From a virus, in the IMG/VR virus record IMGVR_UViG_3300050821_003619, positions 1-64,000 of that record: DNA of 64,000 nucleotides; one strand, written 5' to 3'. The position numbers and the translations under genes are program-made. Below are positions 4,661 to 49,219 of the stretch, piece by piece; position 1 is the first letter of the stretch; every line of letters begins with the position of its first letter. The notes under the pieces are model-generated. The model did no database searches and had not been told where the DNA came from. It worked only from the letters and a program-made list of their open reading frames with translations.

Positions 4661-4693
4661 CTATGGCTCCTCGTGAGTCTTCTGAGTCAATAG

Positions 4694-4718
4694 AAAAGGG
4701 TGCCCGTAGGCACCCTTT
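4694..4718 (-). terminator. Intrinsic terminator hairpin after portal
   Basis: AAAGGGTGCC-N-GGCACCCTTT inverted repeat followed by TTTT on minus. Confidence 0.55.
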
Positions 4719-4721
4719 GTC

Positions 4722-12570: not shown

Positions 12571-12645
12571 TGGTGGACAATGACGGCTACGCTCCGTCCT
12601 CCCTCGGGTGCAAGCCGAGAGTTTTCCTGAATAAACTAATCGCCC
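12571..12645 (-). tRNA. tRNA-Ala(UGC)
   Basis: Cloverleaf, loop CUUGCAC, G3:U70, CCA; atypical T-loop AGCGUAG. Confidence 0.85.
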
Positions 12646-12647
12646 AC

Positions 12648-13742
12648 TTAAAATGGTTCTGTGTAACGAAAGAATTTTATTAATCGTTCAAAGAAATTTT
12701 CTTTCTTACCATAAAGGAAATGAAACCATTTTTCAATACTTCTTTTATTGTGCTTAATCAAGGCTTTCGTGCCTTGTATCGCTGCATCGTCTCTTAATAA
12801 CAAGTTGATGCCTACTTCAGATATTTCTACCGCGTCATCGGCATCGGCTTTCCATGAATCTGGAGCCCAATATATCGCAGATGATACCACAGAAGGTACA
12901 CCGGCCAACACTCCGTCTGCCGTTACCATGTTGAAGGATTCCGTATAAGAAACCTGAATCAACAAATCCATGCTGCTTACCAGATGAATGAATTGATCCC
13001 ATGGCTGCCAGTTATGACGTACAAGGGTGAACCCCGGTATATTGTCGGTCATCTGGCCTATAGCTGGAGAAACTCTACCTTGGTCTCCTTCTCCACCGGA
13101 AGACATATGAAACTCTACAGGTACTTGAAGTTCTTTTTGTATAAGAACTGCAGCCGCTGTAGCAGTCATAAAGTTCTTCTCGGGACGTACTGCACCAAAT
13201 GCGCCGATCTTTATAGGACTAACACCGTCCCACGGCTCTTTTTGGCGCTGATATGTCAGCGGATAAAGATTAGGGAGAAGAACCGCTTCTCTCTCGTATG
13301 CTTTTTCAAACCACTCTACAAATCTTTCAGAGTTGCCACCAACTTTTAAGTTAGGATATTTCTCCGAAAGTTCTTGGTACTTTCTCAATAACTCTACACC
13401 TTCTGGGTCAGCTTGCAGAAACCCAACGTTTGAGTGAGAAAGTATAACAAATTCTATGTCTTTAAAATTTTTAACTAGAGACTTTAAATCATGAAGGCTA
13501 AGCCAAGGAGCAGATATAACTACGTGCGTGAGAGGCTTATCGTGGGTTTCGTTGTATTTATCAACGGCATGCACAATATCAACGTTGTGCCTTACAGGGA
13601 ACACGGTGACATCCACTCCGTATTCTCTTAGTACTTGCGCTGTGGTAAACCCTGCTACATTCAGTCCAACACAGCTAGTTCTTATCCATGCAGCAAAATC
13701 TTTAAATACCAGCGCTAATCTTACGTCTTCTGCCTTCTTCAT
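12648..13742 (-). CDS. Glycosyltransferase, GT-B fold (GT4-like)
   Basis: GAVRPEKN and SYTESFNMVTADG..GVPSV motifs. Confidence 0.75.
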   Translation of the reverse strand: MKKAEDVRLALVFKDFAAWIRTSCVGLNVAGFTTAQVLREYGVDVTVFPVRHNVDIVHAVDKYNETHDKPLTHVVISAPWLSLHDLKSLVKNFKDIEFVILSHSNVGFLQADPEGVELLRKYQELSEKYPNLKVGGNSERFVEWFEKAYEREAVLLPNLYPLTYQRQKEPWDGVSPIKIGAFGAVRPEKNFMTATAAAVLIQKELQVPVEFHMSSGGEGDQGRVSPAIGQMTDNIPGFTLVRHNWQPWDQFIHLVSSMDLLIQVSYTESFNMVTADGVLAGVPSVVSSAIYWAPDSWKADADDAVEISEVGINLLLRDDAAIQGTKALIKHNKRSIEKWFHFLYGKKENFFERLIKFFRYTEPF

Positions 13743-13857
13743 CTAATCCTTCTGGGGAAAGAGGGATTGCCGGGGTTCCTTTACGACGCCCAATCCCGGC
13801 GCGGACGTTTACAAATTGGTTGCGGCCTCCGGTAACGCTCCTAGGAGACCGCAAAAT

Positions 13858-13934
13858 TGGGTGCGGGAGCGAGAATCGAACTCGTCCATGTGATGCTTAT
13901 GAGACATCCGTAGCCACCAGACTACGTTCCCGCA
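13858..13934 (-). tRNA. tRNA-Met/Ile2(CAU)
   Basis: Loop CUCAUAA, T-loop UUCGAUU, CCA. Confidence 0.85.
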
Positions 13935-14187
13935 ATTTATACTCAATTATCCTGTGACAGTTAGCACACAATAGTATGCACTTCTTTAATTCCTCTAAAA
14001 TGCTTTCTCTACTATGTCTAAAAATTCCTGCACTAAGATTAAATCTTTTTGTGTCTGGGTTTACATGGTGAAAATCCATAACATACGATGGGAATTTATT
14101 GCCGCATCTGTTACATGGTTTATTTTTATATGTATCCAGCCACTCTCTTCGTTTCTTTATTGCCTTCTTAACTGTGCTATACGTGCT
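13897..14187 (-). CDS. HNH endonuclease; 3' end overlaps tRNA(CAU)
   Basis: PCNRCG...MDFHH...KCILLCANCHR. Confidence 0.8.
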   Translation of the reverse strand, partial: STYSTVKKAIKKRREWLDTYKNKPCNRCGNKFPSYVMDFHHVNPDTKRFNLSAGIFRHSRESILEELKKCILLCANCHRIIEYKLRERSLVATDVS

Positions 14188-14266
14188 CATCTTTTCTCTT
14201 TTCCGCAGAAAGATGAACAAGTGCGTCCGCAACCACCTGAGTTTTATCGTCTCAGGAACGTCAAAA

Positions 14267-14342
14267 TGGGGTGAGCAGTAGGATTCGAACCTACATAAGC
14301 CAATTTAGAAGATTGGTGCACGGTCCCTTATGCCATGCTCAC
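14267..14342 (-). tRNA. tRNA-Arg(UCU)
   Basis: Loop CUUCUAA, CCA. Confidence 0.9.
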
Positions 14343-14349
14343 GTAAAAT

Positions 14350-14427
14350 TGGTCGGCGCGGGAGGATTTGAACCTCCATATACTCGCGTCCAAGGCGAGG
14401 GGGTTAGCCAGATTACCCAACACACCG
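14350..14427 (-). tRNA. tRNA-Pro(UGG)
   Basis: Loop CUUGGAC, CCA. Confidence 0.9.
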
Positions 14428-14436
14428 AAAATTGTC

Positions 14437-14669
14437 TCATTAGGAACAGGCGAAAACAGAGCGGGAATCAACGTATTGACTACGCTGCTGTAGTTTCATC
14501 CGTGTATTCACCCTAAAGTATCGCCCGGAGGTGATTACTGTGAGTGACGGCTACAGGCTTCCCTAGCATTTTTAGACGTGCCTAGCGTTCCATACGGAGT
14601 TGACTGCCACCGAAGTGTCAGTGGTTTGCGTCATCAAGTATGAAGTATCTGTTTTCTACGCCATAATGA
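14437..14669 (-). ncRNA. Y-RNA-like RNA 1 (shared stem plus ~175-nt structured insert)
   Basis: 5' UGGCGUAGAAAACAGAUACUUC ... CUGUUUUCGCCUGUUCC 3'; near Ro60 gene. Confidence 0.7.
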
Positions 14670-14677
14670 AAATTTAT

Positions 14678-14812
14678 TAGATGCAGGAACAAGCGGTCAC
14701 AGAGATTTTAGCGCTCTGCCACTAAGCTACGGAGACCGAAGTCTCCGGTGGGAGTCGAACCCACGCCTCTTCATTAGCAGTGAAGTAACTGTGTCCTACG
14801 CCATGCAATCTA
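14678..14812 (-). ncRNA. yrlA: Y RNA 2, YrlA-type (shared stem plus permuted tRNA-like T/acceptor/D domain)
   Basis: Insert GUGGG-UUCGACU-CCCAC, CGGAGAC-UUCG-GUCUCCG, GCUU-AGUGGCA-GAGC; close to the TROVE gene. Confidence 0.85.
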
Positions 14813-14823
14813 AACTTAAAATT

Positions 14824-14895
14824 TGGTCGCCCCGCTGAGAGCAACCTCAGCCACCCTCCCCAATGGGAGTCGTGCCGCACTTACACCACAGAGCG
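14824..14895 (-). ncRNA. CCA-ended tRNA-like RNA with non-canonical anticodon and T loops
   Basis: Acceptor CGCUCUG/CGGGGCG-ACCA and D stem present; anticodon arm CUCCC-AUUG-GGGAG; T loop GUUGCU. Confidence 0.6.
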
Positions 14896-14903
14896 AACTC
14901 ATC

Positions 14904-14990
14904 GTGGGAACAAACGATTACAGAGATTATAAGCTCGTATTAGGAGCTTCTCTTGTTAATGGTAAGAAGTAACTGTAATCTACGCCACAC
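14904..14990 (-). ncRNA. Y-RNA-like RNA 3 (shared stem plus short hairpin insert)
   Basis: UGGCGUAGAUUACAGUUACUUC ... CUGUAAUCGUUUGUUCC; starts ~12 nt after the TROVE stop. Confidence 0.75.
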
Positions 14991-15002
14991 AAACTTTATA
15001 AC

Positions 15003-16319
15003 TTATTCGTTTTCGTAAGCCTGAATCCAATTTACTACAGATTCCGACCATCCGTCAAGGTGGCTCCATTTTCCGTATCCGATACCGTTCTGATAAGAAG
15101 CCACATTGATCACGTATCCTACACCGTTAGGTGTAGATACTGTCTGATGCGATTGCTCATCAGTAACGATGATGATACGGTCGTAACCACGGGCATCAGC
15201 TACTCTTTTCGCTGATTCCGTGTTGGTTGACCCGTGGCTTGTAGCGTTCTTAATTGCATCTCGAAGCGCAAAACCTCTACGGGCTGGAACCAAAACGGGA
15301 GAATTTGAAAACGAAAGAACTTCTACGTCTTCACAAATCTCACGAAGGAGAATAGCCAGAGCACAAGCCGCATCACTGCGGTCGATCTCACTCTTTGCCG
15401 AAACTGGGGTACCGTACATGCTACCAGAGTTATCTACAAGAAGAATCGTCTTGCCCTTTAGCTTAGGCATCTTCTCCAATGCCTTGAACATAGCCTGCTC
15501 TAATTCAGGCTCTAGGTCTGGGGCATACTTCGCCGCAGAAATGAATCTGAATGGCAGCACTCTGCTCACATCAATCTTTCTCAAGGCGCTCTTGATCAGC
15601 GTCTTGCTTACCCCAGACTGCTCCATATTGCGAAGGTTACGCAATAGAGCCAACGCTCCAAGCTTCTCTTCTTCGATCAGTCGCGTAAAGGTTTCACCCT
15701 TGTCAGCGCCTCCTGAGAGAGCAACTTCCCACGTATCTGGCGTCTTCAATTCGTTATTGACAACCTTCTTGAAAAGCTTTTCCTGTTTCTTATTCTCAGG
15801 CTTAGCGTGAGAAAGGAAAAGAACATCGCGCAGCTTTACTGCACCGTCACGGTTGTACTTAGCAAGTGCATACTCTTCGAACTTACCGAAGGCTCGCGCC
15901 AATCCACGCTTACTCTGCGCTGATAAAGGCTCCTTGCCGTCTTTCCAATAGATTGCCACGTACTCAGTCAACTCATCTGGGCGCTGAATTACGCGTTCCA
16001 GAAGTTCCGCTACGTACTGACGCTCAGTCACTTTTGGGTGACGGGCCAGTTCACGCGCTAACAATAGAGGTACGTGACGTAGCTTCATTTCTTCTCTCGC
16101 CTTAACAGCGATGTCAGCTACGGTTTTGCCGGGAAGCGAGTGCACCAGCGTCTTAATACGCTCTGCGATTGCCTGCCCGTCTTCATAAAATTGGTCTTCC
16201 CAAAGCATGCACGCCATTACTGAGCGCTCTAATTCTTTTGCTTTGGTGATTTTCTTTGCAACTGCACCTTCATGTGTGAAGATAGGTGCAGACTTTACTG
16301 CTCTGTTTAGGGTAGCCAT
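15003..16319 (-). CDS. rsr: Ro60/Rsr TROVE-domain RNA-binding protein with vWA domain
   Basis: QRPDEL, LAKYNR, LRDVLFLSH, TWEVALS, ALLRNLRN, RVLPFRF, MIDAS DNSGSM, IVTDEQ. Confidence 0.95.
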   Translation of the reverse strand: MATLNRAVKSAPIFTHEGAVAKKITKAKELERSVMACMLWEDQFYEDGQAIAERIKTLVHSLPGKTVADIAVKAREEMKLRHVPLLLARELARHPKVTERQYVAELLERVIQRPDELTEYVAIYWKDGKEPLSAQSKRGLARAFGKFEEYALAKYNRDGAVKLRDVLFLSHAKPENKKQEKLFKKVVNNELKTPDTWEVALSGGADKGETFTRLIEEEKLGALALLRNLRNMEQSGVSKTLIKSALRKIDVSRVLPFRFISAAKYAPDLEPELEQAMFKALEKMPKLKGKTILLVDNSGSMYGTPVSAKSEIDRSDAACALAILLREICEDVEVLSFSNSPVLVPARRGFALRDAIKNATSHGSTNTESAKRVADARGYDRIIIVTDEQSHQTVSTPNGVGYVINVASYQNGIGYGKWSHLDGWSESVVNWIQAYENE

Positions 16320-16363
16320 AAACACTCCTGAGTCAAATTTATACTTCTACTGCCGAACAAAAT

Positions 16364-16439
16364 TGGCATGAGATGCAGGATTCGAACCCGCACGATTCGT
16401 TTTGGAGACGAACATGCTGCCGTTAAACATCAATCTCAT
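16364..16439 (-). tRNA. tRNA-Trp(CCA)
   Basis: Loop CUCCAAA. Confidence 0.9.
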
Positions 16440-16442
16440 ATA

Positions 16443-16518
16443 TGGAGCGAAGCACGAGATTTGCACTCGTTCCGTTTGGTTGGAAGCCAAACATGCTGCT
16501 GTTAAACACCAGCCTCGC
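16443..16518 (-). tRNA. tRNA-Gly(UCC)
   Basis: Loop CUUCCAA. Confidence 0.9.
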
Positions 16519-16519
16519 G

Positions 16520-16593
16520 TGGAGCGAACTGAGAGAATCGCACTCTCGCCTAGTCGTTGGCAACGACCGGTTCTACTACTAAACTAAGCTCGC
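16520..16593 (-). tRNA. tRNA-Gly(GCC)
   Basis: Loop UUGCCAA. Confidence 0.88.
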
Positions 16594-16664
16594 TCAAGTA
16601 GCCGAAGGCGACACCCAACGACATCTGCGGGGAATTACAACGCTGAATCAGCTACTAAATAAAA

Positions 16665-16741
16665 TGGCGACCTGTATGGGATTCGAACCCATGATCTGTC
16701 CCGTGACAGGGGACTGGGGACAGCCACTCCCCTAACAAGCC
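16665..16741 (-). tRNA. tRNA-Asp(GUC)
   Basis: Loop CUGUCAC. Confidence 0.9.
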
Positions 16742-16742
16742 G

Positions 16743-16836
16743 TGGACGAGAGTGCGAGATTCGAACTCGCGGCCCCTTTCATCAAGGAAGCGGCGGTTTT
16801 CAAGACCGTTGCATTAATCCGCTCTGCCAACTCTCG
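16743..16836 (-). tRNA. tRNA-Ser(UGA)
   Basis: Loop CUUGAAA, long variable arm. Confidence 0.9.
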
Positions 16837-16845
16837 GTTTCAAAC

Positions 16846-16938
16846 TGGATGAGAGTAAGGGATTCGAACCCTTGGACCCCATTGCTGGGCATCACATGTT
16901 TAGCAAACATGCTCGATAAACCACTCTGACAACTCTCA
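16846..16938 (-). tRNA. tRNA-Ser(GCU)
   Basis: Loop UUGCUAA, long variable arm. Confidence 0.9.
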
Positions 16939-17037
16939 ATAAATTTTGTGAGGCTGAGAGGTAACGAATGCTCTCAATTAAGTTTTAACGTTCATGCTTA
17001 CGCAATTTACGGCGCTACCGTACAACACCTCTAAACT

Positions 17038-17113
17038 TGGTCACTCATGCGGAAGTCGAATCCGCGTCACTTCCTTGAGAGGGAAGTATCCTAAGCCACT
17101 AGACGAATAAGTG
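17038..17113 (-). tRNA. tRNA-Glu(CUC)
   Basis: Loop CUCUCAA. Confidence 0.88.
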
Positions 17114-17169
17114 ATAGATGTGGATTTCGCAGTGCTGCCCACATCGGCCTGCACTCGGCCTTTGCAAAA

Positions 17170-17244
17170 TGGAGGTCCCACAGGGAATTGCACCCTGATC
17201 TAAAAGTTCGTAGCTTTTCATCCTATCTGTTGAACGATAGAACC
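17170..17244 (-). tRNA. tRNA-Arg(ACG)
   Basis: Loop CUACGAA. Confidence 0.88.
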
Positions 17245-17391
17245 TCATAAAATCGGTGCCGCAGAAACTTATTGCTTTTCTTTGTACTTCAGCATTGAGC
17301 AACATCGGTTACCCTGCGGCTAAAATTTGGGTGGGTTTTTTACGGTCTTCTCAGAATCCAATACCCACCCCATCTTCAAGATTCATAAATT

Positions 17392-17467
17392 TGGTGTCTC
17401 GTGCGGGATTCAAACCCGCGTCAAAAGCTTGAAAGGCTTCCATCCTAGATCACTAGACGAACAAGAC
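17392..17467 (-). tRNA. tRNA-Glu(UUC)
   Basis: Loop CUUUCAA. Confidence 0.88.
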
Positions 17468-17468
17468 A

Positions 17469-17543
17469 TGGCTCCTACCGCTGGATTCGAACCAGCACCC
17501 TACGCATTAACAGTGCGCTATCCTGCCGTTAGACCAGATAGGA
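17469..17543 (-). tRNA. tRNA-Asn(GUU)
   Basis: Loop CUGUUAA. Confidence 0.88.
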
Positions 17544-17558
17544 ACATTACAATTAAAT

Positions 17559-17646
17559 TGGTGCACGCTGATGGATTCGAACCACCAATAGCTCTTAGAG
17601 CCGGGAGGGTTACAGCCTCCTGCAATAGCCGTTATGCGAAACGTGC
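17559..17646 (-). tRNA. tRNA-Tyr(GUA)
   Basis: Loop CUGUAAC, long variable arm. Confidence 0.88.
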
Positions 17647-17653
17647 ATTTAAA

Positions 17654-17728
17654 TGGTGACCACTGGAGCGCTCGCATCTCCGTCCACGGGGTTTCAATCC
17701 GTTGCTATGCTATCTCAGCTAAGAGGCC
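17654..17728 (-). tRNA. tRNA-Phe(GAA), atypical T arm
   Basis: Loop UUGAAAC; enlarged T loop. Confidence 0.7.
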
Positions 17729-17742
17729 ATAAAATTTATTCA

Positions 17743-17801
17743 CGGGAACAAACGTGTACGGTGTATTTTCATCCAAAGAAGTAACCGTACACAACACCAC
17801 G
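17743..17801 (-). ncRNA. Y-RNA-like RNA 4 (minimal: shared stem with ~15-nt loop)
   Basis: UGGUGUUGUGUACGGUUACUUC ... CCGUACACGUUUGUUCC with compensatory changes. Confidence 0.65.
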
Positions 17802-17807
17802 CAAATA

Positions 17808-17881
17808 TGGAAGCCCCGCAAGGATTTGCACCTTGGTTAGAAAGGTCAAAGCTTTCCGTCCTGCTCTTGAACGACAGGGCT
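17808..17881 (-). tRNA. tRNA-Gln(UUG)
   Basis: Loop CUUUGAC. Confidence 0.88.
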
Positions 17882-17970
17882 ATAAAAATTTGAGGCAGGA
17901 TTTACATACGTTGCAGTTCCATTATCCAACGTAAGACCTAAATACCGAATGGATGCGGTTGCCTCAAAAC

Positions 17971-18044
17971 TGGTAGGCAAGGAGTGAGTTGCACACTCAT
18001 TTCACTCTAATCAGGAGTGCTGTCTGCTGTTGACGTACTCGCCT
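17971..18044 (-). tRNA. tRNA-Ile(GAU)
   Basis: Loop CUGAUUA (U37 unusual). Confidence 0.8.
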
Positions 18045-18045
18045 A

Positions 18046-18131
18046 TGGTCCGAAAGAAGAGAGTCGAACTCTTATGCATTTACTGCGGCAGTTTTTGAGA
18101 CTGCTGTGTCTGCCTGTTCCACCACTCTCGG
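18046..18131 (-). tRNA. tRNA-Leu(CAA)
   Basis: Loop CUCAAAA, variable arm. Confidence 0.88.
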
Positions 18132-18140
18132 ATTTAAAAT

Positions 18141-18225
18141 TGGTCTCGAAGATGGGACTCGCACCCATACGCCTGACGGCAGAAGTTTTTAAGACTTCCG
18201 TGTCTGCTAATTCCACCACGACGAG
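18141..18225 (-). tRNA. tRNA-Leu(UAA)
   Basis: Loop CUUAAAA, variable arm. Confidence 0.88.
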
Positions 18226-18227
18226 AT

Positions 18228-18303
18228 TGGCTGGCCGTCAAGGACTTGCACCTCGACCATTCGGGTCAGAGCCGAACGTTCTGCTATTAAAAACTAACAG
18301 CCA
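18228..18303 (-). tRNA. tRNA-Gln(CUG)
   Basis: Loop CUCUGAC. Confidence 0.88.
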
Positions 18304-18312
18304 ATAAAAATT

Positions 18313-18389
18313 TGGAGTACGTTGCAGGATTCGAACCTGCGCCTAGACGGGTTGCAGCCGTCCGCGTTTAGCCTCTTCGCCAAACGTAC
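18313..18389 (-). tRNA. tRNA-Cys(GCA)
   Basis: Loop CUGCAAC. Confidence 0.9.
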
Positions 18390-18390
18390 A

Positions 18391-18466
18391 TGGAGGGCAC
18401 GCGAGAAATCGAATCTCTTTCACGCGGGGTCACAACCCGGTGGCTACACCAGTTGCTACGCGCCCT
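18391..18466 (-). tRNA. tRNA-His(GUG)
   Basis: Loop UUGUGAC. Confidence 0.82.
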
Positions 18467-18471
18467 AAAAT

Positions 18472-18550
18472 TGGTACACCGGGTTGGATTCGCACCAACG
18501 GTAATCCTTCTTTGTAAGAGAAGGGGCTTCGTCTCCTTGCCCACCAGTGT
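18472..18550 (-). tRNA. tRNA-Val(UAC)
   Basis: Loop CUUACAA. Confidence 0.85.
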
Positions 18551-18602
18551 ATGGTGCAATCCTATAGATTGCACAACCGTATTTCTACGGGGAGTCGTAA
18601 AT

Positions 18603-18680
18603 TGGAGCCTAAGACTGGGAATCGCACCCAGTACAACCTCTTTACGAGAGAGGTATTCTAGCATCTTAAATTACTCAGGC
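18603..18680 (-). tRNA. tRNA-Thr(CGU)
   Basis: Loop CUCGUAA. Confidence 0.88.
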
Positions 18681-18690
18681 ATAAAACTCT

Positions 18691-18791
18691 ATTTAGGGAA
18701 CAAGCGAATACAGGAAAGGCACCAGCCCTTGCTACGGAATCGAACCGCTCGCTCTATATGCAAGAAGTACCTGTTTTCTACGCCACTAAAT
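18691..18791 (-). ncRNA. Y-RNA-like RNA 5 (shared stem plus T-arm-containing insert)
   Basis: UGGCGUAGAAAACAGGUACUUC ... GCGG-UUCGAUU-CCGU ... CUGUAUUCGCUUGUUCC. Confidence 0.72.
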
Positions 18792-18795
18792 AAAC

Positions 18796-18870
18796 TGGAG
18801 CCACTGGTAGGAGTTAAACCCACACACGCCAAGGTACAAGCTTGGTGCACTGTCATTATGCTACAGTGGC
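18796..18870 (-). tRNA. tRNA-Thr(UGU)
   Basis: Loop CUUGUAC. Confidence 0.85.
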
Positions 18871-18871
18871 A

Positions 18872-18945
18872 TGGAGCCCAAGGATGGAATCAAACCATCG
18901 TTGCTCCCTTACCAAGGGAGAGTTCTATCACTGAACTACAAAGGC
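18872..18945 (-). tRNA. tRNA-Thr(GGU)
   Basis: Loop UUGGUAA. Confidence 0.88.
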
Positions 18946-18955
18946 AATAAAAATA

Positions 18956-19273
18956 ATACTAACTCTGTAAGCAGGATTCTGTCAATGGAATATTTTCCAC
19001 CGGACAATCATTCGTCTTAGCTTTCAACCCGATGGCTCCCCGAGCAGGATCACTGCCATCCTATTTGAAATTGCTGCCCCTAGAGATTGCCCGTTTCACT
19101 CCCACTCAAGGGATTCGTCACTGTTGCTCTTATCGTAGCCTCGCGGCTCCCGCAGCTTCCACGGTAGGGTGCTCTTTGCAGTCCTGACTTTCCTCACCTT
19201 AAGATGAAGCGCTCCGCAAGGTATTAACCACACAGTGCTTGATCCGATAAGGCGCGATTGTCTGAGTTAGTAT
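18956..19273 (-). ncRNA. rnpB: RNase P RNA
   Basis: Conserved GAGGAAAGUCAGGAC and ACAGAAUCCUGCUUAC (P4), GUGAAACGGGCAAUC, AAUGAUUGU; P1 AUACUAACUC/GAGUUAGUAU. Confidence 0.92.
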
Positions 19274-19373
19274 AAAATTGGTATGGAAGATACTCTAGGA
19301 GTAGTCACCTTTGACTTTCAGCCTGCTCGCTACATCCACGTCACTTTTGCAGGATATCGGAACATCTTAAAAT

Positions 19374-19460
19374 TGGTGCGCCTAGAGGGACTTGCACCCC
19401 CACGGCTGTTAACCACTGGAGTCTAAATCCAGCGCGGCTGCTAAATTACGCCATAGACGC
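19374..19460 (-). tRNA. tRNA-Leu(UAG)
   Basis: Loop UUUAGAC, variable arm. Confidence 0.88.
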
Positions 19461-24926: not shown

Positions 24927-25243
24927 AAACACTCTCTACTTATGGCGCACATGTAACTCCAGCTAATATTCAATACGCTCTATCCAACAGTGGACTTGAG
25001 TGGAGAATGTCTCCTGCACAATGGACTTCAATACAGTACTGGTCTTTGTTTAATCCATCAGTTGTAGTGAAAGAAGTGAAATCAGAAGTAACTACAGAAT
25101 TTTTTAGCAGTTCTGCTCATTCTCTATTTGGTATTCCTGTTGATATAGTGAAAGGGTACGAGCAAAGTTGGATTGAATTAGTATTGGGGAAGAGAAGTAA
25201 TTTTCAGAATAGAAAACCTTTCAATACCACAGGGGTTTCCAGA

Positions 25244-25678
25244 ATGATCAAAGCTTATTCAGACGGAGCAAGCCGGGGAAATCCCGGCCCTAGCTCCTGT
25301 AGTTACGTCATCTACAACGGTGAGGAAGTAATCGACAAGGGCTACAGGTACTTAGGAGAACAGACCAATAACTACGCCGAATACCGTGGACTGCTGGATG
25401 CACTAAGCGCATTAGATACATTTGGTTATAAGGGTGCAGACATTTTTTGTGATAGCACTCTGGTCGTAAACCAAGTCAACGGCATTTGGAAAATTAAACA
25501 CTTAGAGCTTATGCAACTCTGCCATCTGGCTCAAGCTCTGTTAATTGTCGGCAAGCATACACTTTCACATGTCGATGGACACAAAGGCATAGCAGGGAAT
25601 GAACTTGCTGACCAACTTTGTAACGAATGTTTAGATGCCATTCAGTGGCACAAGGAAGCAAATGACTCAGCTAATTAA
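25244..25678 (+). CDS. rnhA: Ribonuclease HI (appears fused to upstream ORF from 24923, probably through a 1-nt indel)
   Basis: YSDGASRGNPG, TNNYAEY, CDSTLVVNQ, GHKGIAGNELAD. Confidence 0.9.
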   Translation: MIKAYSDGASRGNPGPSSCSYVIYNGEEVIDKGYRYLGEQTNNYAEYRGLLDALSALDTFGYKGADIFCDSTLVVNQVNGIWKIKHLELMQLCHLAQALLIVGKHTLSHVDGHKGIAGNELADQLCNECLDAIQWHKEANDSAN

Positions 25679-26940: not shown

Positions 26941-27020
26941 GGGAGCGTAACTCAATTACGCTAGAGTACCCGGCTTTTAACCGGGAAGTTGTAGGTATCG
27001 AAGTCCTGCCGCTCCCACCA
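26941..27020 (+). tRNA. tRNA-Lys(UUU)
   Basis: Loop CUUUUAA, CCA; 9-nt T loop. Confidence 0.85.
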
Positions 27021-27716: not shown

Positions 27717-28163
27717 CTATTTACCTTTACAAGCTGCTGAACCAGAGCACTCAAGTCTTCCACAGCTATGAACCCAAGGATCACCCGTGTCAAACTGCCT
27801 TTCAATCCCGGCGCTAAAATCGGCTGTCCGCTCAGTTCCTGCTCTGCCCTCTTGTTCTTGAGGCGGGGAAGGTACCGTGGAAAGGTCCAAAGCTTCTGTG
27901 TCTATGTATATAGGCATAGGCGATAGAAATCGGTTTAGCATATCAGTGGCTAGCTTTACACCGGCCTCTGATCCGTCATGCACACCCTTGCTATAAGCCT
28001 GATGTTCTCTGTATTGAATTTCTTTTTCATTGCTCTTTAGAAACCATTTTAGGTCTTCAATATCGCGTCGAAGGGCAAGTACCTCGCAAGCATTTGAACA
28101 ATAATCAGGACCCGGTGGAATTTCCTTATTACAAACCAAGCATGTATCTTTAATATCTTCCAA
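27717..28163 (-). CDS. Hypothetical protein with N-terminal Zn ribbon
   Basis: CLVC...YCSNAC. Confidence 0.6.
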   Translation of the reverse strand: MEDIKDTCLVCNKEIPPGPDYCSNACEVLALRRDIEDLKWFLKSNEKEIQYREHQAYSKGVHDGSEAGVKLATDMLNRFLSPMPIYIDTEALDLSTVPSPPQEQEGRAGTERTADFSAGIERQFDTGDPWVHSCGRLECSGSAACKGK

Positions 28164-28171
28164 GTTTTCTC

Positions 28172-28516
28172 CTAATAAATGGGAATGTTGTGGCTGAATA
28201 GTTGGCTCCTCAGTTGGAACACTTTCACCTCAAACTCAATTCCATGTGGTATACCCGGCCAAACTATGTGTGCCATCTCGTGTAGGAATTCCCTGATGTA
28301 GTGTTTGAAGAGCCGAAGGTACCATCGATTAAACCTGATGTCGGCATAATCTTTGTACAGGTGACAATCGGCTAGTGATTCCGGCATGTACCAAGCGAAC
28401 CTGATCTCAACCCTGTCAGGAATGTGCGGGTATATCCCGCGAAGGAAATGGTAGTGTTCTGTAAATATTCTACGCGTTTCCTTCTCAGAAGCATATTTGG
28501 GATAGTGTTTGTACAA
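28172..28516 (-). CDS. SprT-like zinc metallopeptidase
   Basis: HEMAH (HExxH) followed by HG..F. Confidence 0.65.
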   Translation of the reverse strand: MYKHYPKYASEKETRRIFTEHYHFLRGIYPHIPDRVEIRFAWYMPESLADCHLYKDYADIRFNRWYLRLFKHYIREFLHEMAHIVWPGIPHGIEFEVKVFQLRSQLFSHNIPIY

Positions 28517-28521
28517 GACTA

Positions 28522-28818
28522 TTACAGCCTTTCATCATAAAAAGCAGTGTTTGTTTTGAGATCATATCCGGCAAAGTTGAAAACTCTTTTGTCCCAACGT
28601 TCAGAGTAAGCACTATAAGAACCAAAAGTGCCTCCTTGTGGTTTTCTTTGTATAGCAATTTCTTGTGTTGGTGCCGGTGGGTACTTCTCGATGTATTCCC
28701 TTGTGCATCCACAGCGGGTCCTCAGCACATACTGGCAGGTATTGGGCTTCGGCTGATTGATACCCAGCTTTTCTTCAAGCACTTTAATGCGTCCTTCCAA
28801 TTGTTCTAGCGCTATCAC
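28522..28818 (-). CDS. Hypothetical protein
   Basis: Packed ORF. Confidence 0.55.
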   Translation of the reverse strand: MIALEQLEGRIKVLEEKLGINQPKPNTCQYVLRTRCGCTREYIEKYPPAPTQEIAIQRKPQGGTFGSYSAYSERWDKRVFNFAGYDLKTNTAFYDERL

Positions 28819-29261
28819 AGGTTCTCCTTATCGCCGGTTCCTTCTTCCATGCCAGAGTTGGGACCAAAGAAGTAACTATGAACATCCTGCTTGATCGTGC
28901 TGAATGCTGAGCGTAGCAGGTCTTTCACTGCTAGTCTTTGCTTGGCATCGGTGAAAGAGGCATCGATCACTGTGAGCACTTTTCCCTTTAGCCGGGAAAT
29001 CTGGTGGTCAAACAGGCTATACTCTGAGGAGGAGAGGGTTTGGTTCTGGTCATAGACCACTTCTGCGCGGGTAAACCTCACTACACGGTAGTACCCATAC
29101 TCTGGTTGATTCTTTAGATTCTCTGCCCACTTCTTGGCGTTCCTTATAGCTTCAGGTTGGTCATCGAACAGGTTGTATTCGTCATTGGCATTCAGCCACG
29201 AGTCACCCTTAATGCTTTCATCGTCTGAAACAAATTCCACTCCGTAAACTGTTTCTTGCAT
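28815..29261 (-). CDS. Hypothetical protein
   Basis: RBS AAGGAG; behind a consensus promoter. Confidence 0.6.
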   Translation of the reverse strand: MQETVYGVEFVSDDESIKGDSWLNANDEYNLFDDQPEAIRNAKKWAENLKNQPEYGYYRVVRFTRAEVVYDQNQTLSSSEYSLFDHQISRLKGKVLTVIDASFTDAKQRLAVKDLLRSAFSTIKQDVHSYFFGPNSGMEEGTGDKENL

Positions 29262-29305
29262 AACGTCTCCTTAGGTTTTAACGGGGGTTTTCACCCCACA
29301 CAAAA

Positions 29306-29334
29306 ATTATATACCCCTGCTAGGAAAATGTCAA
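29306..29334 (-). promoter_or_regulatory. Perfect sigma70 consensus promoter
   Basis: TTGACA-N17-TATAAT. Confidence 0.85.
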
Positions 29335-29399
29335 CTAATTTGGTGCCTAGGCGTTAAAGCGCCTAGCTAGGGTTTAGGCGGAAAATAGCCTAGGGTCCT

Positions 29400-29670
29400 A
29401 CTGAGTCTGAAAGCGATTTCTGACAGGTACAAAAAATGTAATCCGGAGGGGACCTCTCTGAAAAGTACAAAAATGTATAACGCTGCCCCGCGTTTCGATA
29501 GGGGGGTCCTCTTCGGGGGGTATACCGGGGGTCCTTCGCCTATCCTTCGCCCACTCCTGTCCGTCTGGTCGGTTGCTCTTCGTGTTCGCTCTGTGTTCGC
29601 CTTTCGCTTTGTGTTCACTATTGCGCGTAGATATACGTTGGAGTGGTTCGCTTTCTATTCGCCTTCACGC
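29400..29670. repeat. Low-complexity repeat region, possible genome terminus/packaging site
   Basis: GTACAAAA(A)ATGTA twice, G-runs, many (G)TTCGC units; strand switch point. Confidence 0.4.
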
Positions 29671-29699
29671 CATATTGCTGGGAATAAGACAAAGTGACT

Positions 29700-30870
29700 T
29701 AATCTTCGAAGAATAAACGTACGCTGTACGCTGTGAAGGTCCGGGAGAGATAGCAGGAACAGCTAAGGGAAGAGCCCGTGTGATACGGGGTAGACACAGC
29801 TAAACGGCGGGGTCTGCAACTAAGGAATTAGTAGTACAAGGTCGGATAGTCTAGTGAATGAGTAGGCATAAGAACAGCAATCACAACAGTTTAGATTAGT
29901 CAATACCCTAATAGTCACCAACAGTAATGGCACTGGTTTAGTGTTATAGTCAACTACAACACTTCTGGTTTGATTACCTTAAACGTTACCGGGCACGCAT
30001 TAGAAGCCATATGAGCGCCTGTGGGTATTTGAATGGATGTGAGTGTGGTTAACGCCTTGGAAGCTCACCTAGGGCAAATGGCTAGGCTTGCTGCCCTATC
30101 CTAGAGTGTGTGTCTATATACCTAGTAGTGCCTCCATACTCTCCGGCGAAGATCAAGCGTATTGTGTACGGTCATATAATAGAAGACAGTCGAGGTTTAC
30201 CGTACGGTGAAACCAGCCCAGCGAATGACCGGCGAAGCTTTGGTAAAAGTTTAACTCTATTTGGTGTGTTATCAACAGCTTGCAGCATGTTTACTGGTTT
30301 GCTATATGCAACAGGAATGGCTGTGATAATGTGTTCCTACCAAACGCGATAAGTCAAGAGCGAATGGCGGTCGGCACCCGAAGCAGGGTCAGTAGATTAA
30401 ACCGGCGAGTTGAGGGCCTTCAATCCTCGACGAGCTACCCTAGACGGGCAATGGCAGAGCGCACGACAGGCTCAACCGGACGGTGCTAGCTGAATGGCTG
30501 AAAAGTCTAATGTTCACCCTACGTGCGAGGGTCAATCGCTCAATCTCAAGTACACTCCTAAGCTTACGGGCGTGCCGATTGAGGCTATCAGATGCGAAGG
30601 GCATCATAGAGCACATCGGAATAGGGAGCGCTACAGCAGGAAGGCAGCTTACGCCGTATCAAGCAGCCTGCTAAGCACGTATGAGAGATTGAGACAACTA
30701 AAACGCACAGTGGATTCGGATAGTGATTGCGACACTGACTGACCACTTAAAACAACATCAAAGCCCTACAGAGTGAATCGCAGCCTAGTTGCAAAGGGCT
30801 GCGCGAGTGACCCGTAGGCTATACGCATGAGCATATGCCTTGCCAGTAATCAAGCTAGCTCACGCGTTAA
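29700..30870 (+). ncRNA. Large structured non-coding region (putative long ncRNA or early leader)
   Basis: No RBS-supported ORF over ~1.2 kb; many local and long-range helices. Confidence 0.55.
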
Positions 30871-30871
30871 T

Positions 30872-30962
30872 GCACGTAGGTCCTAAGCCTTCGTGCTCAC
30901 TGCTCCACCACATCATACGATTGGTTCAATAAGAGAGCAGTGAGTAGGAGGGCTTAGACATG
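30872..30962 (+). promoter_or_regulatory. SD-switch element A
   Basis: GCACGUAGG-UCCUAAG-CCUUCGUGC, hairpin, GGAGGGCUUAG-AC-AUG. Confidence 0.6.
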
Positions 30963-31193
30963 AGACTGAAAGATGTACCATTCGCACCAGCGTACGTTGT
31001 ATTCCATGCTGCATATGACAATGGAGCAATGGACGTTTGGCCTGCTACAACCTTTGCCGAAGCACAAGAACGCGCTAGCCATCATCAGAGCAGACTTGAG
31101 GAATCTGGCTATGATGAGGCTGGTATCTGGAAGGCATACGAGAAGCTTCCACGCAAGAAGGTTCATATATTCCACACATTAAAGGGAGAGTAA
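30960..31193 (+). CDS. Early hypothetical protein
   Basis: GGAGG RBS. Confidence 0.65.
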   Translation: MRLKDVPFAPAYVVFHAAYDNGAMDVWPATTFAEAQERASHHQSRLEESGYDEAGIWKAYEKLPRKKVHIFHTLKGE

Positions 31194-31375
31194 TATGTCA
31201 ACACGCGCCACACTTCGCAAGTACGAAGCCGTACAAGAGCGGCATGATGCCGCATTCGACCGTGCCTTCTCTATTCGGCGAGAGGCACAGCGTATCCTTC
31301 GCCAGAAGCGTGCACAGATTAGAGTGACTGTGCTCAATGAGAAACGCGACCTACCATTCTAAGAGGAGATAATCA

Positions 31376-31579
31376 ATGACCACTGATGTTAAAGCTGTAT
31401 TGTCTGGGGAAGAAACACAGGACGCCATTGACTACGTTGAAACCGCTTTGGCCGAAGGCATAGGAGAGATTGAAGACATGCTGAGGCGCAGGGCTAGTAG
31501 GTACACACTGAAAAGCGAGGAAGCGCTCAAGATTCGCAAGGCGCTTGACTTACTTAACAGTGTAAAGGTTGGCATCTAA
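31376..31579 (+). CDS. Early hypothetical protein
   Basis: GAGGAG RBS. Confidence 0.65.
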   Translation: MTTDVKAVLSGEETQDAIDYVETALAEGIGEIEDMLRRRASRYTLKSEEALKIRKALDLLNSVKVGI

Positions 31580-31585
31580 GTATAT

Positions 31586-31730
31586 AACGCAAGGTTTGGT
31601 GCCTTGCGTTGGCCCATACACCTTAGGCAGGATCGTAGGGGACTTGCAGCACGCTAGAAGCACTCTTATGAGGCGCGTGTAATGGGTGTGGGTTCGACTC
31701 CCGCATGGGCCAACGGAGGGCACCAACATG
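31586..31730 (+). promoter_or_regulatory. SD-switch element B with tRNA-like T arm and acceptor stem
   Basis: AACGCAAGG-UUUGGUG-CCUUGCGUU; GGCCCAU...GUGGG-UUCGACU-CCCGC-AUGGGCC; GGAGGGCACC. Confidence 0.65.
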
Positions 31731-31913
31731 GTTGACACGTATATGTTCGCTGATAGTGTCACGGGTTTAACACACATGTTGACCCTGACACTTACACTTA
31801 GGCGACACGGATACACCACGCACGCACATACAAAGCGCGTTGCTGGATTCTTGTTGCATGTACTCACAGCTACACCTAAGCCGCATGCATCGCGGAAGGA
31901 ACGAGGTCTATAA
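31728..31913 (+). CDS. Early hypothetical protein
   Basis: ATG after GGAGG, in frame with track ORF 31686..31913. Confidence 0.55.
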   Translation: MVDTYMFADSVTGLTHMLTLTLTLRRHGYTTHAHTKRVAGFLLHVLTATPKPHASRKERGL

Positions 31914-32185
31914 TGCCAATCGATTACGAGCGTGCTAAGCGTGAAGGTCCCAAGCTTAAGGCTGCACTGACACGCGCAGCTAAGACGCCAGACGTTGCAC
32001 AACGTTTTGAGAGAGTTAAGAAGGCCTGCAAGCAAGCTGTGTACGCATGGGAGCAATGGGGCGCATGGCCCGACAATTGGCGTGTATGGGAATCTGCTCT
32101 TGTAGATGCTAGCAATGCATACACGCGTGAGACTGGCGTATACGTTAACACTCCGTTATTAAGCAGATTGGAGGGTTTACTCTAA
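31913..32185 (+). CDS. Early hypothetical protein
   Basis: Translationally coupled. Confidence 0.6.
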   Translation: MPIDYERAKREGPKLKAALTRAAKTPDVAQRFERVKKACKQAVYAWEQWGAWPDNWRVWESALVDASNAYTRETGVYVNTPLLSRLEGLL

Positions 32186-42817: not shown

Positions 42818-43312
42818 ATGAAAATGTACTTGATAGGCAGTGAGTTCGATGGGTACTGCAAGATTGGCAAATCAGAATACTCAGAGCTAAGAGCACAAGC
42901 CCTAGATCGACCTAAGCTTCCTTTCCCAATAAAAGTCTTAGCAGAGTTCGATGCTCAAGGAGAAGCCGATAGAGTTGAAAAAGAACTCCATGCCTATTTT
43001 GAGCATAAGACGGCCAGAGGCGAATGGTTCACGTACATACGACCAGAGATTTTTCTGAGGAAAGCTGAGCAATTCACAGGCCCAAATCCAAAACCGGGAC
43101 GAACAGAGTTTCCTTTGACTAGAAAGGGAGGCATAGGATTTGAAAAATGGGTAGAACAAATGGAAAAGGATTGGAAACTGAAATCTGCAGAAGAGAAAGA
43201 GCAAATATACAAGGGATTAGACGCTTTAGAACTGGAGCGTAAAACTCTGAAAGCGGAAAGGATAAGAAATGCGCGTCAAGCTAGAAAACATACTGCCCAA
43301 CCCGTTTCGTGA
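42818..43312 (+). CDS. GIY-YIG/T5orf172-type endonuclease
   Basis: YLI..CKIGKS..R..L...VEKELH..F....GEWF. Confidence 0.8.
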   Translation: MKMYLIGSEFDGYCKIGKSEYSELRAQALDRPKLPFPIKVLAEFDAQGEADRVEKELHAYFEHKTARGEWFTYIRPEIFLRKAEQFTGPNPKPGRTEFPLTRKGGIGFEKWVEQMEKDWKLKSAEEKEQIYKGLDALELERKTLKAERIRNARQARKHTAQPVS

Positions 43313-44759
43313 TCTTGAAAGAAATCCTTTGGTACCAATTAAAATCGAAGAATTACGAGCTTCTATTCGGCAGACTGGCTACTGGGACAACGTAGTTGTT
43401 CGTCAAAGAAAAGATGGAAAATTTGAACTGGCCTACGGTCACCACCGTTTAGAGGCTGCAAAATTGGAAGGTATAACAGAAGCCGATTTCATTGTGAAAG
43501 ATTTTGATGACGCCACCATGATTAAGGTCATGAGTGCCGAAAACAATGATGCATATGGTTATACAATTTTGTCTTTAATTGAAGTGGTGCGAGCAGCCGT
43601 AAATGCTCTGGCTGATGGACGTATTCCTACTTTTGAAATACCAAAAGACACCAAAAAAGAATACATTCGTTATGCTCCCTCATTCTCTTCAGGAGGTAAA
43701 GCACCTGCCGCAAACTTTGCGGCACGTCCTTATACTGCGGTTGCCTTGGCTGATTTTTTGGGGTACACTAGAAAAGATGGACGTGGAAGAATTCAGGCAG
43801 ACACCAACATTCAAGCTGCATTAAGAGCCTTAGAATTAATACAAGAAGGTGTCTACACAGAAAATACTTTGAAAGATTGGAAAGTAGCCCAGCTTTTAAA
43901 GAACACTCAAGACCGCTGGGACATGCTCCAGAGACAAAGGGAGCAGGCAGCAAAGAAAAAAGAAGACGAGGCTGAACGCCTGCGTATCGAGCAAAGACGT
44001 AAAGCAGAACAGGAGGAACGAGAGGCCATTATAGAGGAGTCTCGAAAAAAGAAAGCAGAAGCTGAGCGTAAACGACGCGAAGCCGAAGCTGCTGAGAATG
44101 CCAAGGCTGTGGCTCAAGCCGAAGAGCGTCGAGCAAAGCTTGAGGAAGAAGAAAAACTCCGCTTATTGAAAGCCCACAAAACTGCTGTAAGAAAAGCCCT
44201 CGATAAATACACCTCTGCCATATCTGTTACGGAAGGTGTAGCTATCGAGAAGGCAGTTAAACAGGCTGAGGAAATACTGGAGTCAAAAGACAGCACGGCT
44301 GCAGTTAAACTCACTGAACAACTCTCAACTCTCTCACGAAAAGTAACAGATAAATATCTTGAACAACAAAAAGTTGAGCAAGAGAGTGCCGAGCGTGAAC
44401 GCAAAGAACTAGCGGTACGCAACATGGTCAAAGCACTCTACCAAAAGATTGAACGCATAATGTCAGAAGAGGACCCATTGCGTGAAGTCATTAAGAGTGC
44501 GGCACGCAACCCTGAAGTTAACCTTAAGGAACGTGATCTACTCCATAGAGCCATGAAGGACGCTGCTGAAAGAGTGAATCAGTGGGCAGGTAAGTTTGCC
44601 AAAGCCGGTAAAGTGGATGTTCTGGCTGAAGCATACAAAAAAGAAGATGCCAAGCGTAAACTCGATGTCAAGGAAGAAGAGGTGCCGGTCATCGAGAAGG
44701 AAATAACCACCAAAAAAGCCTCCGCAGTCAAACCTAAAGAGAAGAAAGGAAAGAAATGA
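43269..44759 (+). CDS. ParB-like N-terminal domain protein with long coiled coil
   Basis: PNPF, IEELRASI, LAYGHHRLEA, AEN. Confidence 0.8.
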   Translation: MRVKLENILPNPFRDLERNPLVPIKIEELRASIRQTGYWDNVVVRQRKDGKFELAYGHHRLEAAKLEGITEADFIVKDFDDATMIKVMSAENNDAYGYTILSLIEVVRAAVNALADGRIPTFEIPKDTKKEYIRYAPSFSSGGKAPAANFAARPYTAVALADFLGYTRKDGRGRIQADTNIQAALRALELIQEGVYTENTLKDWKVAQLLKNTQDRWDMLQRQREQAAKKKEDEAERLRIEQRRKAEQEEREAIIEESRKKKAEAERKRREAEAAENAKAVAQAEERRAKLEEEEKLRLLKAHKTAVRKALDKYTSAISVTEGVAIEKAVKQAEEILESKDSTAAVKLTEQLSTLSRKVTDKYLEQQKVEQESAERERKELAVRNMVKALYQKIERIMSEEDPLREVIKSAARNPEVNLKERDLLHRAMKDAAERVNQWAGKFAKAGKVDVLAEAYKKEDAKRKLDVKEEEVPVIEKEITTKKASAVKPKEKKGKK

Positions 44760-48859: not shown

Positions 48860-49219
48860 TACGCACGTATGAGGTAATCGCAAAGCCTATCGGACACGGG
48901 TTCGACTCCCGTCGCCTCCACCAAGCTACTCACGATGAATACCGGCTGACCCCAGCGTCTAGCGCGGAATCACGGCTAGGCCCGAGACGAATGCATCGTT
49001 ATCGGGAAAGTCGAGGATAATTCTCGTCTGGGTGAGTAGCTTAATGGGGGCGTCACGGCTTCGACGGTGGGAACTGAGGGATTTACTGACGTGCCGTTAT
49101 CGTACGCCGTTCGTTATACGGAGTGCAAAAACACAAATGCTAAGACTAACAAGTCTCGCAAGGCCTATGGCATGTTCTTCGGTGGAAACACTGTTGGACA
49201 GCTTTCTGTAGCTGCCTAA
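48860..49219 (+). ncRNA. ssrA: Circularly permuted two-piece tmRNA
   Basis: Acceptor piece ...GGACACGGGUUCGACUCCCGUCGCCUCCACCA (ends 48923) precedes coding piece GGGGGCG (49046); G3:U70; tag AKTNKSRKAYGMFFGGNTVGQLSVAA* at 49139-49219. Confidence 0.88.

Follow-up and report, generated by a model that had tools for sequence, protein, structure and literature searches.

The gene-free stretch at 29262-30959 of this phage DNA (about 1.7 kb) is, in our opinion, probably a composite control region of a family of soil phages of ~100-110 kb, and not one RNA gene. In its left part a strong leftward sigma-70 promoter would stand next to phased TTCGC pairs (three forward, one inverted) and a palindrome, which may bind a phage protein and act as an origin or operator array. 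In its right part a 23-bp block in the -35 place would be followed by an extended -10, and transcription, as we infer, would start near 30337. The 5' end of the RNA would form a small hairpin that presents a conserved 12-nt loop; the RNA would then continue U-poor and would reach a long hairpin hiding the ribosome-binding site of the first gene. A new large RNA at this place, as the initial annotation proposed, would have been notable; the evidence points instead to a conserved control region. Its parts are of ordinary kinds. They are handles on how such phages start transcription, perhaps also replication, and they are now precise enough for tests: the phased pentamer array is a candidate origin or set of operators, the 23-bp block a candidate activator site, and the covarying hairpin the third such part.

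The window, that is, the whole 64,000-nt stretch that was analysed, is the first 64 kb of a viral record of 109,250 bp. The 25-bp terminal repeat of this record looks like an assembly overlap, and hence the record does not give the true genome ends. The 109-kb phage encodes a family A DNA polymerase, a ribonucleotide reductase, a helicase and a T7 gp4-type primase-helicase (Toprim and DnaB type), and it carries ~30 tRNAs, an RNase P RNA and a permuted tmRNA. A scan of the whole window with the Rfam gathering thresholds returned only RNA genes of these kinds, all of them outside the gap:

18952-19227 (minus strand), 48863-49219 (plus), 12571-19460 (minus) and 26941-27017 (plus): RNA genes matched in Rfam, namely bacterial class A RNase P RNA (126.8 bits), permuted tmRNA (92.8 bits) and some 24 tRNAs

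The tRNA count by ARAGORN is 26. The phage family is uncharacterised and unusually rich in RNA genes, which raises the prior for a new RNA. Neither DNA searches (in near and distant modes) nor a protein search of a phage database returned a match to this phage, and neither a regulator nor a phage RNA polymerase could be recognised when its large proteins and those encoded nearby were searched against PHROG and Pfam. The public runs that contain this DNA are soil metagenomes; two DNA soil runs contain the stretch or a small part of it, and no RNA run is listed as containing it. GC skew, with a minimum near 19 kb, tracks gene orientation and is therefore uninformative on where replication starts.

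The gap and its relatives

The interval 29700-30870 had been described as free of open reading frames. This is correct, and it applies more widely, from 29262, at the start of a minus-strand gene (28815-29261), to 30959, before the start of a plus-strand gene at 30960. The plus strand of the gap has no ORF of at least 20 aa with a Shine-Dalgarno-like motif, and the minus strand has a single weak one, of 20 aa. The gap opens the longest stretch without an ORF of at least 90 aa in the 109-kb genome. Small early-type genes follow directly after it, beginning with:

30960-31193, plus strand: first rightward gene, 77 aa, 23 homologues

The 77-aa product has no Pfam or PHROG match and falls in no known family.

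It is barely credible, in our view, that the region is decayed coding sequence or a set of small unannotated genes. Plus-strand ORFs of 63-82 aa do exist in it, but all of them lack a Shine-Dalgarno motif. A six-frame comparison with the closest relative, L002, gives only short matches dispersed over several frames, and the insertions and deletions between the two do not come in threes. Long open frames are also absent from the relatives (counted from stop to stop), even where T-poor sequence makes stop codons rare.

Relatives were reached by protein-anchored and pattern scans, followed by searches of their records, and at least six further lineages have recognisable parts of the region. By polymerase identity, L002 (with its duplicates) stands at 68%, L015, L025 and L035 at 60-62%, and L034 at 59%; L034 is cut at a contig end, and L009 is a short contig with the 77-aa gene. 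Three records found by exact-pattern scans for the invariant block (L028, L029 and L030) were set aside as chance matches, having no flanking similarity. The flanking genes vary among lineages, while the position of the non-coding region and the order of its parts are kept. Between the window and L002 conservation is patchy (63-88% in blocks) and collinear, with many indels of 1-2 bases, and is not of the coding type. Six related lineages share a set of ordered modules, which are the leftward promoter, the TTCGC pairs, the palindrome, the 23-bp block (in three lineages), the extended -10, the 5' hairpin, the U-poor leader and the hairpin at the ribosome-binding site.

The left and right parts of the region are separable, since in relatives genes are inserted between the modules. 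Nuclease genes stand between the two parts in L002 (VRR-NUC) and in L025 (endonuclease VII), and in L035 the insertion is a minus-strand gene that has a promoter of its own. In the same sample, a contig of 1,080 nt matches the window only at 29587-29641 (the repeat block) and at 29941-29963 (the palindrome), with ~300 nt between the two as in the window; as it is otherwise unlike the window, a further related phage in that soil seems to share just these elements.

Free-standing nuclease genes of the VRR-NUC and endonuclease VII families were seen at L002 4946-5239 (plus strand), L025 5932-6384 (plus) and 4468-4941 (minus), and L015 17057-17362 (minus). They lie within the homologous non-coding region or on its border, some have strong promoters of their own, and they look like insertions of the homing-endonuclease type.

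Elements of the left part

The left part holds the following features:

29306-29334, minus strand: leftward sigma-70 promoter TTGACA-17-TATAAT, matching the consensus at 12 of 12 positions and serving the minus-strand cluster 27717-29261
29419-29477, no strand assigned: 17-nt direct repeat TCTGAMARGTACAAAAA, two copies 38 nt apart (repeat family D3/D12)
29535-29662, plus strand: three TTCGC-N6-TTCGC pairs with 11-bp phasing, at 29535, 29585 and 29647, an iteron- or operator-like array
29941-29962, no strand assigned: palindrome GTGTTATAG-TCAA-CTACAACAC, of the form GTGTT...AACAC
30221-30236, minus strand: fourth TTCGC-N6-TTCGC pair, inverted, which also forms inverted repeat I4 with 29534-29550

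Equivalents of the leftward promoter were read in L015 and L025, and a promoter scan found one in L035. The 17-nt direct repeat overlaps a block (29452-29550) that is 71% identical to L002.

The 109-kb genome contains four TTCGC-N6-TTCGC pairs, all of them in the gap (29535-30236), against 0.22 expected genome-wide, and single inverted half-sites are over-represented further right. Every relative that reaches the left part (L002, L015, L025, L034 and L035) has such pairs, with one to six copies oriented in one direction or in both. By pattern search, the GTGTT...AACAC palindrome stands at the equivalent place in L002, in L015 and L025 (two copies each) and in L034, which makes five lineages including the window; a similar palindrome was recognised by eye in L035.

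Given the 11-base phasing, the occurrence in both orientations and the restriction to a single locus, these repeats are better understood as protein-binding arrays (iterons or operators) than as RNA. The left part (~29262-30240) most likely acts at the level of DNA, with predicted sites for a phage protein that would form either a replication origin or a set of operators controlling the divergent promoters. Iteron origins likewise have a short repeat in multiple copies within one non-coding region, and 29850-29949 is 63% A+T. However, neither an AT-rich unwinding element nor an initiator gene that would back an origin was identified, the region has no perfect DnaA box and none conserved among lineages, and the neighbouring small proteins have no informative Pfam or PHROG family match.

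Two further observations concern the repeats. The only domain recognised in a 496-aa protein encoded at 43269-44759 (plus strand) is the N-terminal one of ParB (Pfam E 2.9e-10); the protein may or may not be linked to the array. We also considered the guide RNA (vrRNA) loci of VIPR, which consist of tandem period-5 GGY/NN repeats of 9-16 units (bioRxiv 10.64898/2026.04.26.720920). No run of nine pentamers with at least six GGY is present on either strand of the whole genome, or in L002, L015 or L025; the repeats here are instead TTCGC at 11-bp spacing, and this reading was dropped.

Proposed promoter, leader and hairpins of the right part

The right part is described by these features:

30288-30310, plus strand: 23-bp block TGTTTACTNGTTTGCTATATGCA, spanning about -49 to -27 relative to the predicted start and including the -35 place (30302-30307) with the ~14 bp upstream of it
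30322-30330, plus strand: extended -10 TGTGATAAT, with a predicted transcription start near 30337
30337-30959, plus strand: predicted untranslated leader of the rightward operon (~620 nt), U-poor, with 18% U (11-21% in relatives)
30345-30362, plus strand: leader 5' hairpin (at about +9), in which 30345-47 pair with 30360-62 as a 3-bp G/C stem closing the conserved 12-nt loop RAUAKGUMAAGA
30635-30672, plus strand: local hairpin at GCAGCUUAYGCCGUAUCAAGC, in the window and L002 only
30880-30960, plus strand: long stable hairpin over the GGAGG ribosome-binding site of the first gene

The 23-bp block is the same but for one base in the window, L002 and L015, and the genome has no second copy of it with up to five mismatches. 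When six lineages are aligned on the hairpin motif, -10-like hexamers end 13-16 nt before the motif in four of them (the window, L002, L015 and L009). Canonical sigma-70 promoters immediately precede the hairpin in L035 (TTGACA-17-TAATAT) and in L009 (TTGACA-17-CATACT). The window itself has no good -35; its best plus-strand promoter score is low, and only the extended -10 can be recognised. Since the invariant block, with its 3' end, occupies the -35 place in the window, L002 and L015, the promoter there would be one that needs a phage factor. This suggests that the three lineages have an activator-dependent promoter, or one used by a modified polymerase, and that the others have a plain host promoter.

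Other readings of the block were tried and rejected. Those as a sigma-54 promoter or a T4 MotA box, made by eye, fail because the GG is not kept in L002 and L015 and the spacing is wrong. A helix between the block and a downstream TTAAAC/GTAAAC has one compensatory change between the window and L002; its register differs in L015, and RNAalifold gives it weak support.

The right ~620 nt (~30337-30959) most likely represent a transcribed 5' leader, both ends of which bear conserved RNA elements. That the leader is transcribed is very probable, given that two relatives have canonical sigma-70 promoters in the homologous place. Among lineages its length ranges between ~290 and ~870 nt. Conservation is limited to blocks, each shared by the members of one pair (window/L002, L025/L035 or L009/L015), and the middle is poorly conserved. 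The blocks at 30258-30498 and 30604-30771 are ~63% identical to L002, again with indels that do not come in threes.

In six lineages 100% of the cells in the alignment of the 5' hairpin pair, and all three base pairs have changed on both sides. For these three pairs in six sequences the covariation score reaches 0.80; shuffles give 0.17, with 2 of 500 as high as the real alignment, and slid controls give at most 0.18. The corresponding count in a test with five lineages is 14 of 500. One of the six, L009, was first found by a search that required the stem, and the motif match is still the sole one in the L009 locus when the stem filter is removed. Covarying arms around a non-palindromic centre indicate pairing in RNA (or in single-stranded DNA) and not a dimeric DNA-binding site. 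The conserved 12-nt loop is probably a recognition site for a protein or an RNase, as a prediction; no long-range partner of the loop is common among the lineages. A reading of the motif as a minus-strand promoter was dropped, there being no -10 at usable spacing.

The putative hairpin at 30635-30672 would have a 6-bp outer stem in which four pairs have changed on both sides between the window and L002, a comparison of two sequences made post hoc; a three-way alignment showed no recognisable equivalent in L015.

At the 3' end of the leader the situation is different, for it is only here that the leader shows an excess of stability. The fold of 30870-30975 has a z of -5.98, and none of 200 shuffles is as stable. 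Analogous 3' hairpins are found in L002 (z -5.78) and L015 (z -4.63), and a weaker one in L025 (z -2.07). In L009 (470-520) and L035 (18145-18195) the hairpin before the first gene keeps the loop ACUGACUGGUAACAGGAAA, and its stem has compensatory changes between both. Short tandem repeats, conserved between L025 and L035, were also seen near the 3' end of the leader, GAGTGAACC twice and CAGCGAGMGACCC twice (L025 7260-7460, L035 18060-18140), and words similar to them, GAGTGAATC and GAGTGACCC, stand at 30771-30779 and 30805-30813 of the window.

Contigs of the sequencing run from which this genome probably comes break at 30918/30930; when compared with the window, they gave no sequence variants that could serve for covariation. 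The break lies in the loop of the ribosome-site hairpin, with depths of 9.6 and 7.4 on its two sides, and it might reflect strain variation, the assembly or the end of a molecule. Taken as a molecule end, together with a terminal repeat that looks like an assembly overlap and the early-type genes directly after the gap, it would suit a reading of the gap as the physical end of the packaged genome, that is, a terminal repeat or packaging site followed by the DNA that enters first, with the repeats serving packaging or injection. We regard this as quite unlikely: contigs cannot show molecule ends, a break in a hairpin loop may come from the assembly, the terminase gene is ~20 kb away, and no sequence feature specific to a pac or cos site is present.

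A different question is whether the right ~620 nt, beyond being a leader, are a functional RNA in themselves: a put- or nut-like antiterminator, a purine-rich R-loop transcript that primes replication next to the repeat array, or a protein sponge. This is possible, and in our judgement it is rather doubtful. Every lineage keeps a U-poor leader despite differing flanking genes; the 5' hairpin is conserved and covarying, blocks are conserved within the three pairs of lineages named above, and the consensus-fold signal between the window and L002, given below, is biased to the plus strand. The phage also encodes a T7 gp4-type primase-helicase, a family A DNA polymerase and an RNase H:

25007-25678, plus strand: RNase H gene, with the conserved RNase HI motifs recognised by eye in an alignment

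This RNase H protein is 40-56% identical across four lineages, and its gene lies ~4 kb upstream of the non-coding region. Replisomes of such a kind can prime from transcripts, as at the T7 primary origin, the T4 R-loop origins and with ColE1 RNA II. Against these points, the leader has no Rfam match, five lineages give no consensus structure, its length is variable and its middle poorly conserved, and its purine content is only 57-63%.

Should a U-poor leader with a covarying 5' hairpin and a ribosome-site hairpin nevertheless constitute a new class of cis-acting regulatory RNA in phages, it might act as an antiterminator or as an R-loop primer beside the TTCGC array. We hold this tentatively and consider it unlikely; if the R-loop primer were the correct version, the first transcription would be coupled to replication in these RNA-rich soil phages. 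The reading that we prefer is still a composite control region whose right part is a leader.

Large RNA folds and known systems

The initial annotation saw in 29700-30870 a dense set of helices and proposed a long structured RNA. The complementary segments that it listed are present in the sequence, but the density of helices is no more than expected by chance. The fold of 29700-30285 has a z of -0.30 (34 of 100 dinucleotide shuffles are as stable) and that of 30286-30870 a z of -0.47 (37 of 100). In sliding 150-nt windows on both strands, z stays between about -2 and +1.6 until 30750, and excess stability begins at ~30800-30960, mostly outside 29700-30870. Such values have to be read together with their controls: the tmRNA of the phage reaches -4.37, but its own RNase P RNA only -0.92, so that a null z gives no support for structure and does not refute it either.

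Four of the listed helix segments (two of which are the halves of one helix) lie in the part that can be aligned with L002, and there they are mostly broken. Covariation among homologues, which a large conserved fold would lead one to expect, was not found across the region: the RNAalifold covariation term is +0.44 for three lineages, and the consensus for five lineages reaches -0.3 kcal/mol. Compensatory changes are confined to the two short local hairpins at 30345-30362 and 30635-30672. Nor was a known RNA family recognised: cmscan with Rfam 15 and permissive filters, over both strands of 28500-32000, gave no match at E up to 1.

One result deserves separate mention. A column-shuffle consensus fold of the window/L002 leader gives a mean z of -3.0 for the plus strand, compared with -1.7 for the minus strand and about -0.5 in coding controls, by a method that ignores dinucleotide content. 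The same procedure with L025/L035 gives a mean z of -0.67 on both strands, and the signal is thus not repeated there. We take it as a hint of lineage-specific local hairpins in the leader, and not of a large fold; being biased to the plus strand, it could also mean that there is more RNA structure than we have credited.

Hence, of the earlier proposal, the RNA stands in part: the right ~620 nt are very probably a transcribed leader with hairpins at both ends, and the single large fold is not supported. We consider it very unlikely that a single large and highly structured non-coding RNA, of the GOLLD or ROOL kind, occupies 29700-30870. We do not dismiss it lightly, as this is the largest non-coding stretch of a phage rich in RNA genes, complementary segments are many, and the null folding values are not decisive. 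But to the missing Rfam match, the two null z values, the helices broken in L002 and the unfavourable covariation term must be added that the left half contains DNA repeat arrays in both orientations, that relatives have protein genes inserted in the middle of the region, and that the canonical promoters of relatives fall inside the supposed RNA. GOLLD and ROOL do resemble the present case in being a large non-coding stretch in a tRNA-carrying phage; unlike them, the stretch here has no Rfam match, no excess folding stability and no conserved long-range helices.

The composite control region that we favour has parallels elsewhere. Cis-acting antitermination RNAs occur in phage leaders, such as lambda nut/boxB and HK022 put, and like these, the 5' hairpin here is a small conserved hairpin shortly downstream of a predicted early promoter and before a long operon. 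Unlike boxB or put, it has a stem of 3 bp and a loop of 12 nt, and the leader contains no boxA-like motif.

Iteron-type origins are known from plasmids and phages, and paired direct-repeat operators have tandem sites, 10-11 bp apart, of the type that winged-helix regulators bind. The left part is similar in having several short repeats one helical turn apart, in both orientations, in one intergenic region, and conserved in relatives. Unlike in those systems, neither a binding protein nor an unwinding element or DnaA box was identified here.

The left end of T7 has host-polymerase promoters, an untranslated leader and an RNase III hairpin before gene 0.3. The arrangement here is alike in that a non-coding stretch of about a kilobase heads small early genes, with one or more host-type promoters, a leader and a long hairpin before the first gene, which RNase III may or may not cleave. 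There is no sequence relation between the two; here the leader is longer, U-poor and equipped with a covarying 5' hairpin, and the promoter of the window lacks a -35 and has a unique invariant block instead. By this analogy, the region would be of a known kind, one that heads the early operons of phages as the T7 left end does, in a new and well-defined form.
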